DNA of 32,000 nucleotides from Acaryochloris marina S15 (lineage in GTDB: Bacteria; Cyanobacteriota; Cyanobacteriia; Thermosynechococcales; Thermosynechococcaceae), in assembly GCF_018336915.1 (NCBI RefSeq), contig NZ_CP064924.1, positions 240,001 to 272,000 on the forward strand, written 5' to 3'. Made by a program: the position numbers and the translations under genes. The notes under the pieces were generated by a model that ran no database searches, was not told the origin of the DNA, and saw nothing but the letters and a program-made list of their open reading frames with translations. This document shows, piece after piece, positions 16,605 through 31,594 of the stretch. How positions within the stretch are numbered: position 1 is the first letter of the stretch; every line of letters starts with the position of its first letter.

Positions 16605-16670
16605 CGCTATGTGAATGCTAGGTAGATGCTAGGTTTACTCCCCCATCAGATGCTAGGTTAATGCTAGGTG
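16605..16670 (+). repeat. array B of ATGCTAGGT motifs in the divergent promoter region
   Basis: CGCTATGTG sits at 16605, followed by ATGCTAGGT(A/T/T/G) at 16615, 16626, 16650 and 16661. The orientation matches array A. The last copy contains the GTG start of the 16668 ORF. Confidence 0.6.
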
Positions 16671-18017
16671 CAAGTAAAGAATTCAATGAATTTTACTCAA
16701 GCGGCAAAGATCGTCAATAGCATCTCTATGCAAGAAAAAGGACGGAAGCAAACTGAAGCTGAAATCATTGCGCTGAAAGCAGCCTGGGACAAAATTGATT
16801 ACGCATTAGCGATTAAAAATTCTAAAGCTAACTACAGCGAGAATTATATACGCAGTGATGCTGGTCGAAAGCTTTGGCTCATGCTGTCTGGACATTTTGG
16901 TGAGAAGATTACCAAAATGTCTCTCAGAAGATACTTTGAGAGACATCCTGAACTCTTAGATCCTGACAAAAGGAATCGAAAAATCTTAGGAGGGTATCCT
17001 CCTGATATTGAAAATTTCGTAGGTCGTCAGAGTGAAGCAGAAGAACTCAAACAATGGTCGAAGACGATTCAATGTGTATGTATTGATGGGATTGCTGGGA
17101 TTGGTAAGACCTGTTTAGCAGCAAAAGCGATAAACGCAATATTCCACCAGCCTTCCCAATTCGAACACTATATTTGGCTACCTGTCCATTACAAACCTAG
17201 CCTCAATGAATTACTGGACTCCCTAATAGAGCATTTGGGGGCTACAAAGGGAGAAGAAACTCAACTAAACCGTAGTTCTATACTCATCCAATATTTACAA
17301 CGGCACAGATGCCTAATTGTATTGGATGAAGTTGATTTAATGCTGCAGACGAATCAAGAGACCAGTGAATATGAGGTTTTCTTCAGGCGAATAATTGAGG
17401 AAAAACATCAAAGTTGCGTTTGGCTGACTGCTAATTGTTTTCCTGAAGGCTTATCCAACTACAAAAACATGGGTTTCCCGTTTGAAAGCTTGCACTTAGG
17501 CCCACTCCAAGCTAACGAAGTACAGAAGCTCGTTGAGTCACATGGAATTACATTTGATGCCGACTGGGAAAAGATGGTCCACACTTGTATGGGCAATCCA
17601 CTTCTCCTGCATTCTGTTCTTAGAAAGGTCTCAAAGGTACTTGGAGGGCAGGCTGACTTAGTTAACCAAAAAACAAGTCTGGCACTAAACGAATTTGAGT
17701 ACCTACTTAATAAACTATTTACCAATACCAATGATATTAAAGAATTAGAGATCATCGTACTTTGCACAATTGCATCTATTGATCGAACTCAAAGCGGTAT
17801 ATCGTTATTAGCATTAACTCAAAACATCCTAGAAAATCATCCAGATATATCTGAGCTGGATATATTCAATAGCCTTGAACGCCTTCAAAACCATAATTTA
17901 CTGAGTCTTGTAACAGATACAGGATCAATAGAGATTGTGATGGTAGACATAATTAAGAAGTATATTTTACGGAATTATATAAATAATGACCAAAATACCT
18001 CATCTATCTTGACCTAG
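16668..18017 (+). CDS. STAND-class P-loop NTPase (NB-ARC/AAA-like) without C-terminal repeat sensor
   Basis: Walker A is IDGIAGIGKTCLA and Walker B is RCLIVLDEVDLM. The N-terminal ~100-aa helical module ends LWLMLSGHFGEKITKMSLRRYFE. The start could be the GTG at 16668 or the ATG at 16686. Confidence 0.75.
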   Translation: MQVKNSMNFTQAAKIVNSISMQEKGRKQTEAEIIALKAAWDKIDYALAIKNSKANYSENYIRSDAGRKLWLMLSGHFGEKITKMSLRRYFERHPELLDPDKRNRKILGGYPPDIENFVGRQSEAEELKQWSKTIQCVCIDGIAGIGKTCLAAKAINAIFHQPSQFEHYIWLPVHYKPSLNELLDSLIEHLGATKGEETQLNRSSILIQYLQRHRCLIVLDEVDLMLQTNQETSEYEVFFRRIIEEKHQSCVWLTANCFPEGLSNYKNMGFPFESLHLGPLQANEVQKLVESHGITFDADWEKMVHTCMGNPLLLHSVLRKVSKVLGGQADLVNQKTSLALNEFEYLLNKLFTNTNDIKELEIIVLCTIASIDRTQSGISLLALTQNILENHPDISELDIFNSLERLQNHNLLSLVTDTGSIEIVMVDIIKKYILRNYINNDQNTSSILT

Positions 18018-30762: not shown

Positions 30763-31594
30763 TTATTAAGTTATTCACAAAATCATCAAATAATTCAGCA
30801 ACTAAAGTTCCATTATCTGTAGGCAATTGGTGATTTGCCTCTGCAATAACTTTTAATTGAGCGTTCGGGATTTTATCCTCATATGCTTGGCAATACCAAA
30901 AAGGAATAGTGAGATCCTTCTCAGCTGCAATAATCAATGTTGCTGATGAAATATCTTGTATACTTCTATCAATTAGCTCAGTGCTCATTTCCCCTTTAAA
31001 TATACGACGAAACCAAGCCTTCATAATAGGTTCATAAAGCAACTGATATCGATAATGTTTAATAGTATTTACAGTCTCTTTCTTCTTGAAAATAGAAGAA
31101 AAGACAGAGACTAAGTTAAGAACCCAATCAATTATAGGAGTTTCCCATGACAAGGGTTTGAGTATTTGGTACTTGTCTAATTCTTCTGAGATTCCAGCAG
31201 GGGCAGCCAAGACAAGTCCTAATACTGATTCTTTATATTTTAAAGCATAGCTAGCAGCAATCCAGCCTCCAAGAGAATGACCAATAATATAGAAAGAGTC
31301 AATACATAAAGCCTTCATGAAGTGATGTATATATGAGACTTGTGACTCAATCTTGTAATCAATCTCTGGCTTAGATGATTCACCAAACCCTAGAAGATCT
31401 AAACTAATACATCGATACTTATTCTTTAATATCTGAGTTACAGCTCTCCAACAGCTTGATTCAGATAAGAAACCATGTAGAAGCAAAACAACAGGCCCTC
31501 TTCCTTCATCCTGGTATGCAGCTTTCACTATTTGTTTCTTATTCGATTCTAAGCATAATTCAAATGACTTTTGATTTTTAGTGAATAGGGCCAT
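30731..31594 (-). CDS. alpha/beta-fold hydrolase (cytoplasmic, Ser-Asp-His triad)
   Basis: The oxyanion region is VVLLLHGF and the nucleophile elbow is IIGHSLGGW. The candidate Asp is in AAEKDLTIP and the candidate His is in EANHQLP. There is no signal peptide. Its 3' end overlaps the tpsA start by 32 nt. Confidence 0.85.
   Translation of the reverse strand: MALFTKNQKSFELCLESNKKQIVKAAYQDEGRGPVVLLLHGFLSESSCWRAVTQILKNKYRCISLDLLGFGESSKPEIDYKIESQVSYIHHFMKALCIDSFYIIGHSLGGWIAASYALKYKESVLGLVLAAPAGISEELDKYQILKPLSWETPIIDWVLNLVSVFSSIFKKKETVNTIKHYRYQLLYEPIMKAWFRRIFKGEMSTELIDRSIQDISSATLIIAAEKDLTIPFWYCQAYEDKIPNAQLKVIAEANHQLPTDNGTLVAELFDDFVNNLINEKSVIPNPT

Follow-up and report, generated by a model that had tools for sequence, protein, structure and literature searches.

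Two-partner (type Vb) secretion pairs a TpsA protein with a TpsB transporter that recognises the N-terminal TPS domain of its partner. The FhaB/FhaC system of Bordetella and the HMW1/HMW1B system of Haemophilus reportedly combine this mode of secretion with proteolytic maturation or C-terminal tethering, and the known TpsA maturation proteases are serine proteases encoded elsewhere. Among CHAT proteases, HetF of Anabaena and the TPR-CHAT protein Csx29 of type III-E CRISPR systems are said to act in the cytoplasm or at the divisome. Hanks-type kinases are found together with STAND NTPases in the AfsK-AfsR system of Streptomyces, and MalT is a STAND transcription factor. Here we describe a locus that encodes proteins of all these kinds side by side. 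It lies in a 32,000-nt stretch of DNA from Acaryochloris marina S15, hereafter called the window, where positions 16668-31594 are a conserved six-gene cassette tied to plasmid replicons, together with two passenger genes. The cassette encodes TpsA, TpsB, a TPR-CHAT protease, a small secreted protein that we term F300, a receptor Ser/Thr kinase and a STAND NTPase.

The window is a stretch of an Acaryochloris plasmid. Its megablast matches include pMB02 and pMB05, two plasmids of Acaryochloris sp. 'Moss Beach' (91-94% identity), and pREB8 of A. marina MBIC11017 (83%), and A. marina has a protein with 100% identity to its CHAT protein. A sequence-only reading of this DNA had listed eight open reading frames (ORFs) at 16668-31594. 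All eight are present, and the domain labels it gave them, 'DUF928' aside, match the Pfam results. The six genes of the cassette are as follows (lengths in amino acids, aa).

16668..18017, + strand: STAND NTPase (core gene 1), 449 aa; Pfam NB-ARC (53.8 bits) and NACHT
18022..19776, + strand: receptor Ser/Thr kinase (core gene 2), 584 aa; Pfam Pkinase (80 bits) and TPR_2 (67 bits)
19822..20700, + strand: F300 secreted protein (core gene 3), 292 aa; no Pfam family
24156..26531, - strand: TPR-CHAT protease (core gene 4), 791 aa; Pfam TPR and CHAT PF12770 (164 bits)
26534..28276, - strand: TpsB (core gene 5); Pfam PF08479 POTRA_2 (42 bits) and PF03865 ShlB (71 bits)
28243..30762, - strand: TpsA (core gene 6), 839 aa; PF05860 TPS (136 bits) and TIGR01901 (63 bits)

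To explore the distribution of these genes, a CHAT alignment was scanned against one genome per species; CHAT was used because no stretch of F300 is conserved enough to anchor a genome scan. More than 586 relatives were obtained, of which the best 80, all cyanobacterial, were analysed. Profiles of the window proteins, made together with orthologous sequences, were run against the ORFs of these 80 CHAT loci, and presence counts were limited to loci whose contig extends far enough (loci 'with room'). The loci fall into two classes: class A, with an F300 homologue beside CHAT (27 of 80), and class B, the remaining 53. Every class A locus with room carries the kinase (24/24), the STAND (23/23) and TpsA (24/24). 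The corresponding counts for class B are 0/43, 0/36 and 34/44 (Fisher p = 1e-18 for the kinase and 7e-17 for the STAND). TpsB lies within 10 kb in 9 of the 16 class A loci with room. F300 is located immediately downstream of CHAT and convergent with it in nearly all class A loci, and the 3' ends of the two genes overlap by 19-52 nt in many of them. The sequence-only reading had asked whether its gene families co-localise beyond this replicon: neighbourhood counts bear this out for the six cassette genes, whereas the other two genes of the segment, described below, are found in none of the 80 loci.

Class A loci occur in Nostoc, Nodularia, Komarekiella, Pelatocladus, Leptolyngbya and Coleofasciculus, as well as in metagenome-assembled genomes of Chroococcales, Synechococcales and Thermosynechococcaceae. 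In pMB05 and pREB6, the gene order is ParB, ParB, NB-ARC, kinase and a 292-aa homologue of F300, followed by convergent CHAT, ShlB and TPS genes. A plasmid of Leptolyngbya boryana has the order ShlB, TPS and CHAT, convergent with an F300 homologue, kinase and NB-ARC, and its proteins are 24-34% identical to the six window proteins over their full length (31% each for the kinase and TpsA). The cassette is also present in Nostoc KVJ20, pCC7120alpha and pREB6. Its order and orientation vary: ShlB comes first in one locus (L003), all genes are co-directional in another (L008), and about half of the loci have the STAND gene in inverted orientation. Pairwise distance matrices of five of the proteins from 20 loci are correlated for kinase and STAND (0.90), CHAT and F300 (0.88), F300 and kinase (0.85), CHAT and kinase (0.78), TpsA and CHAT (0.73), and TpsA and STAND (0.53), all with Mantel p≤0.0005. 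Given this covariation, the two convergent halves are passed on as a unit whose linkage loosens somewhat towards the ends. Relatives show no independent assortment of the two, which had been posed as a refutation of a common system; the complete set co-occurs across several orders despite rearrangement.

In pCC7120alpha (L088, 7567-10779), a TnpB-family element interrupts the kinase gene, separating a fragment with the 4-Cys prefix from the rest, and no TpsB is present near the cassette. This copy of PCC 7120 is therefore probably non-functional, and the split kinase makes another strain preferable for experiments.

The secretion half of the cassette has the features expected of type Vb systems, namely a TpsA with a TPS domain and an adjacent TpsB with POTRA and Omp85/ShlB barrel domains. 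Both family matches of TpsA are far above their cut-offs (PF05860, 136 bits against 33.5; TIGR01901 adhes_NPXG, 63 bits against 29.1), and the TPS motifs NPANL...NSNGIFFG are present. The TpsB gene overlaps the 3' end of TpsA by 34 nt. TpsA begins with a signal peptide and the TPS domain, continues as a beta-helix and ends in a conserved module of ∼120 aa with two cysteines. This module aligns across all 67 CHAT-linked TpsA proteins of classes A and B, and is retained even where up to four tandem TpsA paralogues precede a single CHAT gene. Since TpsB reads the N-terminal TPS domain, the common C-terminal tag points to another partner, for which TPR-CHAT is the obvious candidate. One CHAT relative (P0113) is a fusion of TPS and CHAT. 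A Gly-flanked arginine in the module, 'TGRGGLP', was considered as a site of CHAT cleavage and set aside, as the arginine is not conserved in class A. Toxin delivery of the contact-dependent inhibition (CDI) type, as by CdiA/CdiB/CdiI, was likewise rejected: the TpsA C-terminus is conserved in 67 relatives rather than polymorphic, the protein has only 839 residues, and no small immunity ORF was found after TpsA in the window.

In the CHAT protein, a TPR domain precedes the protease domain and the N-terminal signal peptide looks cleavable. The His/Cys dyad (H663 and C707) is invariant in 23 relatives, and the protein is thus predicted to be an active caspase-like (clan CD) cysteine protease.

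F300 contains a signal peptide, an N-terminal domain with four cysteines, an FN3-like sandwich and TPR-like helices. Residues C37, C51, C68, C86, W130 and Y138 are invariant across 38-45 family members, which also have in common a K-G motif, the beta-sandwich and the helical C-terminus. The AlphaFold2 (AF2) model is confident (predicted local distance difference test, pLDDT, 83); its best Foldseek match is the C-terminal domain of MtxA (4z29, E = 2.8e-6), followed by many FN3 domains. There are 16 close homologues, of which the named ones are all from Acaryochloris. A profile search of 1.8 billion representative proteins returned 942 relatives (115 at E≤1e-10), mostly of 300-330 aa and matched end to end.

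Pfam, NCBIfam and PADLOC scans assign F300 to no family. In Pfam the window protein has sub-threshold TPR matches only and does not match DUF928 (PF06051) even at E≤10, and just one of 38 family members reaches DUF928 (E = 0.004). The earlier label 'DUF928' thus fails by the Pfam gathering score, yet it holds as remote homology: hhalign aligns F300 with DUF928 proteins from related loci with 94.3% probability (E = 1e-7, 116 columns), in a region that spans the last portion of the sandwich and the helices. The two also occupy the same gene position, directly downstream of CHAT. F300 is thus DUF928-like in the sense of distant kinship only.

The receptor kinase consists of a 4-Cys prefix (4Cys_prefix, NF045510 of NCBIfam), a Hanks domain with intact HRDIKPSN and DFG motifs, one transmembrane helix (residues ∼338-358) and a TPR domain. 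A single hydrophobic segment lies between the kinase domain and the TPRs in all 21 orthologues, and the predicted topology is that of a receptor-type Hanks Ser/Thr kinase with its TPR domain outside the cytoplasm. A hydrophobic N-terminus is found in 19 of 23 CHAT proteins, 35 of 45 F300 proteins and none of 27 STAND proteins. The proposal that three TPR proteins of this segment are placed outside the cytoplasm is therefore plausible, both the N-terminal hydrophobicity and the hydrophobic segment of the kinase being retained in orthologues.

The STAND protein comprises an HTH_VMAP-M9 domain (residues ∼8-95), the NB-ARC domain and a winged helix, an arrangement with the class features of NB-ARC proteins, i.e. 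a P-loop with Walker A and B motifs followed by helical and winged-helix modules. The N-terminal domain of ∼90 aa corresponds to PF26355 (HTH_VMAP-M9) by precomputed annotation of homologues. Walker A (GxxGxGK) and Walker B (D220 of the hhhhD motif) are invariant in an alignment of relatives. The best Foldseek matches of the AF2 model (pLDDT 80) are a plant NLR, Apaf-1 and CED-4 (E = 1e-10 to 1e-12), within the NB-ARC core only. According to Pfam and the AF2 model, the protein of 449 residues ends after the winged helix, with neither C-terminal sensor repeats (TPR, WD40 or LRR) nor a recognisable effector domain. The longest ORF starts at a GTG at 16668; since homologues begin with MNFTQ, equivalent to the ATG at 16686, the latter is probably the true start. 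The chromosome of Pleurocapsa sp. FMAR1 (L092, 10001-13791) carries an HTH_VMAP-M9-NB-ARC gene and a Pkinase-CHASE2 gene with a 4-nt overlap between them. Neither TPS nor CHAT was found near this pair, so the combination of STAND and receptor kinase looks like a module of its own.

Clustering of unassigned ORFs identified two families exclusive to class B loci, which by Pfam are DUF928 (178-201 bits) and CHASE2 membrane receptors with cyclase, His-kinase or other outputs. The genes are ordered CHAT, directly DUF928, and then CHASE2. Of the 26 class B loci flanked by 5 kb or more on each side, 21 have DUF928 and 23 the CHASE2-containing cluster, the latter being a single-linkage cluster that took in some AAA_35 and His-kinase proteins. 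The class B TPR-CHAT proteins are 28-35% identical to the window family over their full length, and in five class B loci a domain of the HTH_VMAP-M9 type forms the N-terminus of an AAA_35 ATPase. The neighbourhood of DUF928, CHAT, ShlB and hemagglutinin genes that the sequence-only reading had mentioned for cyanobacterial genomes is real and equals this sister class.

Class B resembles the cassette in having TpsA (often several) with or without TpsB, a TPR-CHAT protein with a signal peptide, a small secreted sandwich-helical protein and a receptor. It differs in that DUF928 stands where the cassette has F300, and a CHASE2 receptor where the cassette has the TPR Ser/Thr kinase. The cassette, for its part, always adds the HTH-NB-ARC STAND and is linked to plasmids or replicons, while class B includes chromosomal loci. 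Because F300 is a remote DUF928 homologue and the receptors hold parallel positions, the two classes follow one design: TpsA, accompanied by TpsB or not, is combined with a TPR-CHAT that is secreted, a small secreted protein of the DUF928 type and a membrane receptor whose sensor (CHASE2 or TPR) faces outwards and whose output lies inside. Class B provides a concrete, testable candidate for the role of DUF928 proteins and the input of CHASE2 receptors. Class B also includes a protein in which a partial CHAT is fused to CHASE2, and a DUF928 protein with six tandem FQSGTAPERARGGASRTI motifs ahead of the sandwich (e.g. L029, 16795-19134; L070, 4934-5662); both give an indication that this Gly-rich DUF928 motif works as a unit.

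The replicon linkage is a second distinctive property of the cassette. In 15 of 19 class A loci with room, compared to 0 of 53 class B loci, a CyRepA1-like rep gene is found 0.7-3 kb past the STAND gene (p = 3e-12); it adjoins the cassette in pCC7120alpha and in Nostoc KVJ20. In L. boryana a more distant gene of the DUF3854/CyRepA type lies beside ShlB despite the rearranged order, and a ParB pair adjoins the cassette in four Acaryochloris plasmids. The adjacent 'plasmid maintenance genes' of the sequence-only reading are indeed ParB-like, with sub-threshold Pfam scores in the window and ParB annotation in the syntenic pMB02, pMB05 and pREB6. F300 homologues occur on 17 PLSDB plasmids (10 non-mobilizable, 6 conjugative and 1 mobilizable). 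No class A contig is longer than 283 kb, while chromosomes of 4.8-8.8 Mb are among those of class B. Diverged copies are found on co-resident plasmids, as in pMB02 and pMB05 (59.5% identity between the F300 proteins) and in two plasmids of Nostoc sp. MS1. Since replication or partition genes adjoin the cassette in three lineages, its location on mobile replicons is recurrent rather than incidental. The features of the window that bear on this link are:

14580-15674 and 15784-16476, - strand: ParB-N-type gene pair, divergent from the STAND gene; weak ParB_N matches
16612..16669, + strand: ATGCTAGGT repeats, four exact, two pairs with 11-bp spacing, directly upstream of the STAND start
14313-14562: second ATGCTAGGT cluster, beyond the other ParB gene

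The two ATGCTAGGT clusters flank the ParB pair and are retained in pMB05 and pMB02. The motif has 18 matches against 5.7 expected, a number reached in none of 100 shuffles, and the GTG of the longest STAND ORF falls inside the first cluster. These repeats are probably a partition site (centromere, parS-like) or an iteron site that overlaps the promoter region of the cassette.

Two further genes of the segment do not belong to the cassette.

20847..24134, + strand: NNH3-NACHT-pentapeptide gene (not core), 1095 aa; Pfam NNH3 (182 bits), NACHT and pentapeptide
30731..31594, - strand: cytoplasmic alpha/beta-fold hydrolase (not core); Pfam Abhydrolase_1 (102 bits)

The NACHT-pentapeptide gene stands between the two convergent halves only in the window plasmid and in pMB02, where it is broken by an IS4 element; no counterpart lies between the halves in pMB05, pREB6, L. 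boryana, PCC 7120 or Nostoc KVJ20. Its pREB8 homologue is located among other pentapeptide genes and insertion sequence (IS) elements, with no cassette genes nearby. A profile search of the locus ORFs finds it in 0 of 80 CHAT loci. It is a passenger in the cassette and not a member. The sequence-only reading had assigned this NLR-type protein a cell-death or non-self-recognition output, which is unsupported because the gene is missing from relatives beyond the closest plasmids, i.e. from pMB05, pREB6 and all 27 other cassette loci. As a passenger, the NLR-like gene makes the island no evidence for an NLR-driven death pathway. The hydrolase, which had been left unnamed, overlaps the start of TpsA by 32 nt. 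It was considered as a cassette member and rejected, with no homologue beside the cassette in any of the 80 loci by the same search and no counterpart in pMB05, pMB02, pREB6, pREB8, L. boryana, PCC 7120 or KVJ20.

The pentapeptide region contains a tandem array at 23343-23905 of 37.5 copies of a 15-bp unit (89% match by TRF), with high GC content (0.60) and strong negative GC skew. A 205-aa 'APTSA' ORF (23299-23916, + strand) is an alternative reading frame of this array. The array differs in sequence from that of the pMB02 copy, while the flanks are ∼90% identical. In pMB02 (L001; 16502-17646 and 22531-23826), the NACHT and CHAT genes are both interrupted, by IS4 and by a DUF6431-associated element; copies of the cassette thus decay in some plasmids. 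At 29001-31594, in the hydrolase gene and the 5' two-thirds of TpsA, the GC content is 0.35-0.39, compared to 0.46-0.52 over CHAT and TpsB, a drop that may mark a mosaic or recombination boundary. Rfam has no match within 14-32 kb of the window. Positions 1-14073 are syntenic with pMB05, and in part with pMB02 and pREB6. They encode an ATPase that weakly resembles DUF87/HerA, a protein of 691 aa that contains sigma-70 region 2, and several others that belong to no family, among them one of 698 aa at 10266-12362. This part of the window is a conserved Acaryochloris plasmid backbone.

On balance, we lean towards the reading that the six proteins act jointly, as an envelope-spanning signalling or processing device built on two-partner secretion; we are much less sure of the direction and purpose of the signal. 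This device is favoured because the six genes co-occur exclusively, survive rearrangement and parallel the design of class B, and an envelope-signalling model remains the best fit because the two halves do not assort independently. In its surface limb, TpsB would export the TpsA beta-helix to the cell surface. In the periplasm, TPR-CHAT and F300 would act on, or answer to, the C-terminal module of TpsA, with CHAT perhaps processing TpsA and/or F300. The single-pass kinase would sense the periplasmic event through its extracytoplasmic TPR domain and act in the cytoplasm on the adjacent HTH_VMAP-M9-NB-ARC switch. The STAND would deliver the output, which is most likely of a transcriptional or adaptor kind and may be directed at the adjacent plasmid backbone.

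Several observations weigh against this device or parts of it. With TpsB near only 9 of 16 class A loci, export may rely on a distant transporter. The candidate arginine cleavage site is missing in TpsA proteins of the cassette class (VGSAGQP in the window). Export signals were judged by N-terminal hydrophobicity alone. Shared descent of whole plasmids partly contributes to the distance correlations, which have no unlinked-gene control. Phylogenetic independence of the counts is also lacking, since the cassette loci are mostly on Nostocales plasmids that have related rep genes. At its N-terminus the STAND has a domain weakly similar to Sigma70_r4 and, at E ∼0.3 in a PDB profile search, to LuxR-type domains, and VMAP-M modules are variable helical sensor modules according to their describers (PMC7159879). 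The DNA binding of this domain is thus putative, the Pfam name 'HTH' notwithstanding, and a transcriptional output is a suggestion that follows from it.

One rival is that an ordinary adhesin secretion operon lies beside an unrelated regulatory operon and the two are kept together by plasmid descent. The secretion half can stand alone, as TPS-CHAT occurs without the kinase/STAND trio in 53 of 80 loci; pairs of HTH-NB-ARC and kinase exist without TPS or CHAT; and the correlation between the halves falls with gene distance, down to r = 0.53 for TpsA and STAND. However, F300, kinase and STAND are never beside a class B CHAT, and all three accompany every class A CHAT with room. The set also survives rearrangement at 24-34% identity across orders, class B fills the same two positions with analogous proteins, and the 19-52-nt overlaps of CHAT and F300 recur in many loci. 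Pure hitch-hiking is unlikely, and we regard the absence of any joint function as very improbable. An equally poor prospect, in our judgement, is a conflict or anti-phage island, in which the STANDs and the caspase-like protease would form an immune or death pathway with the NACHT protein as output. STAND NTPases, CHAT-type peptidases and VMAP-M modules are typical of conflict systems of multicellular bacteria (PMC7159879), the kinase matches the PADLOC PD-T4-6 kinase models (4e-86), the STAND weakly matches PDC-S27 (28 bits), and an NCBIfam anti-phage model gives a weak match to the NACHT protein, whose pentapeptide array varies from one close plasmid to another. But the NACHT gene is outside the conserved set, the models matched by the kinase cover kinases generically, PADLOC-DB 2.0 returns nothing for six of the eight proteins, and the cassette STAND has neither sensor repeats nor a recognisable effector domain. 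As it carries a signal peptide, CHAT moreover cannot serve the STAND as an executioner in the cytoplasm. The Aravind-group conflict-system papers checked do not mention two-partner secretion, hemagglutinin or POTRA, nor does the 2020 survey mention ShlB, FhaB or TPS.

Because of the replicon linkage, the most interesting specific version of the envelope device is one that serves the plasmid, a role that we consider rather unlikely. It would be a recognition, exclusion or maintenance module in which TpsA and its partners mark or sense plasmid-bearing cells, and the limb of kinase and STAND either adjusts replication, partition or transfer or penalises loss of the plasmid. The rep gene beside the STAND (15/19 in class A, 0/53 in class B), the ParB pair in four Acaryochloris plasmids and the DUF3854/CyRepA-type gene by ShlB in the rearranged L. 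boryana locus all argue for it, as do the 17 PLSDB plasmids with F300, the restriction of class A to contigs of ≤283 kb as opposed to the chromosomes of class B, the diverged copies on co-resident plasmids, and the ParB-flanking repeats that overlap the promoter region of the cassette. On the other hand, adjacency to rep and par genes may merely reflect the slowly changing core of one old plasmid lineage. The rep gene is missing in 4 of 19 loci with room, the mobility types are mixed, MBIC11017 carries the cassette on only one of its nine plasmids, and no toxin or immunity pair is recognisable. The PCC 7120 plasmid, furthermore, persists although its kinase is split by the TnpB element. A more elaborate form, a diverged recognition device encoded beside the replication or partition genes of each plasmid, in which the periplasmic protease and F300 cut or release a surface TpsA filament and the kinase, via NB-ARC, adjusts replication, partition or transfer, seems to us quite unlikely. 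If true, it would amount to plasmid-encoded sensing of neighbours or of plasmid status, and, by analogy, the input of CHASE2 receptors would be a product of TPS/CHAT/DUF928 processing.

The component families are all known, and it is their combination, the F300 family and the replicon linkage that appear to be undescribed. A full-text search, with most subscription journals outside its scope, found no description of the cassette and no paper connecting TPS, CHAT, DUF928 or CHASE2. Compared to FhaB/FhaC and HMW1/HMW1B, the cassette has the same pairing of a TPS-domain TpsA with a POTRA-barrel TpsB, and the C-terminus of its TpsA is a candidate for periplasmic retention, cleavage or disulfide anchoring through the two cysteines. 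Unlike those systems, it encodes along with the pair a CHAT protease of its own and a DUF928-like protein, as well as a STAND and the receptor kinase. It is also not CDI-like, its TpsA being short (839 aa) and without a polymorphic toxin end. The CHAT protein shares with HetF and Csx29 the CHAT fold and His/Cys dyad, and with Csx29 the position of the TPRs N-terminal to CHAT, but it differs from both in its cleavable-looking signal peptide and its location in a secretion operon. The passenger gene at 20847-24134 resembles bacterial NACHT/NLR-like proteins, with an N-terminal helical NNH3 domain, NACHT and a C-terminal repeat sensor. As in AfsK-AfsR and MalT, a STAND with a putative DNA-binding domain is present, here paired with a Hanks kinase. 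However, AfsR has a SARP domain and its own TPR sensor, whereas the STAND of the cassette is without sensor repeats and the TPRs are on the kinase, outside the membrane. If the six genes cooperate, they would represent the first two-partner secretion system with a dedicated extracytoplasmic caspase-like protease, the first direct line from two-partner secretion through a receptor Ser/Thr kinase to a cytoplasmic STAND, and the first such signalling device to travel with plasmid replication genes.

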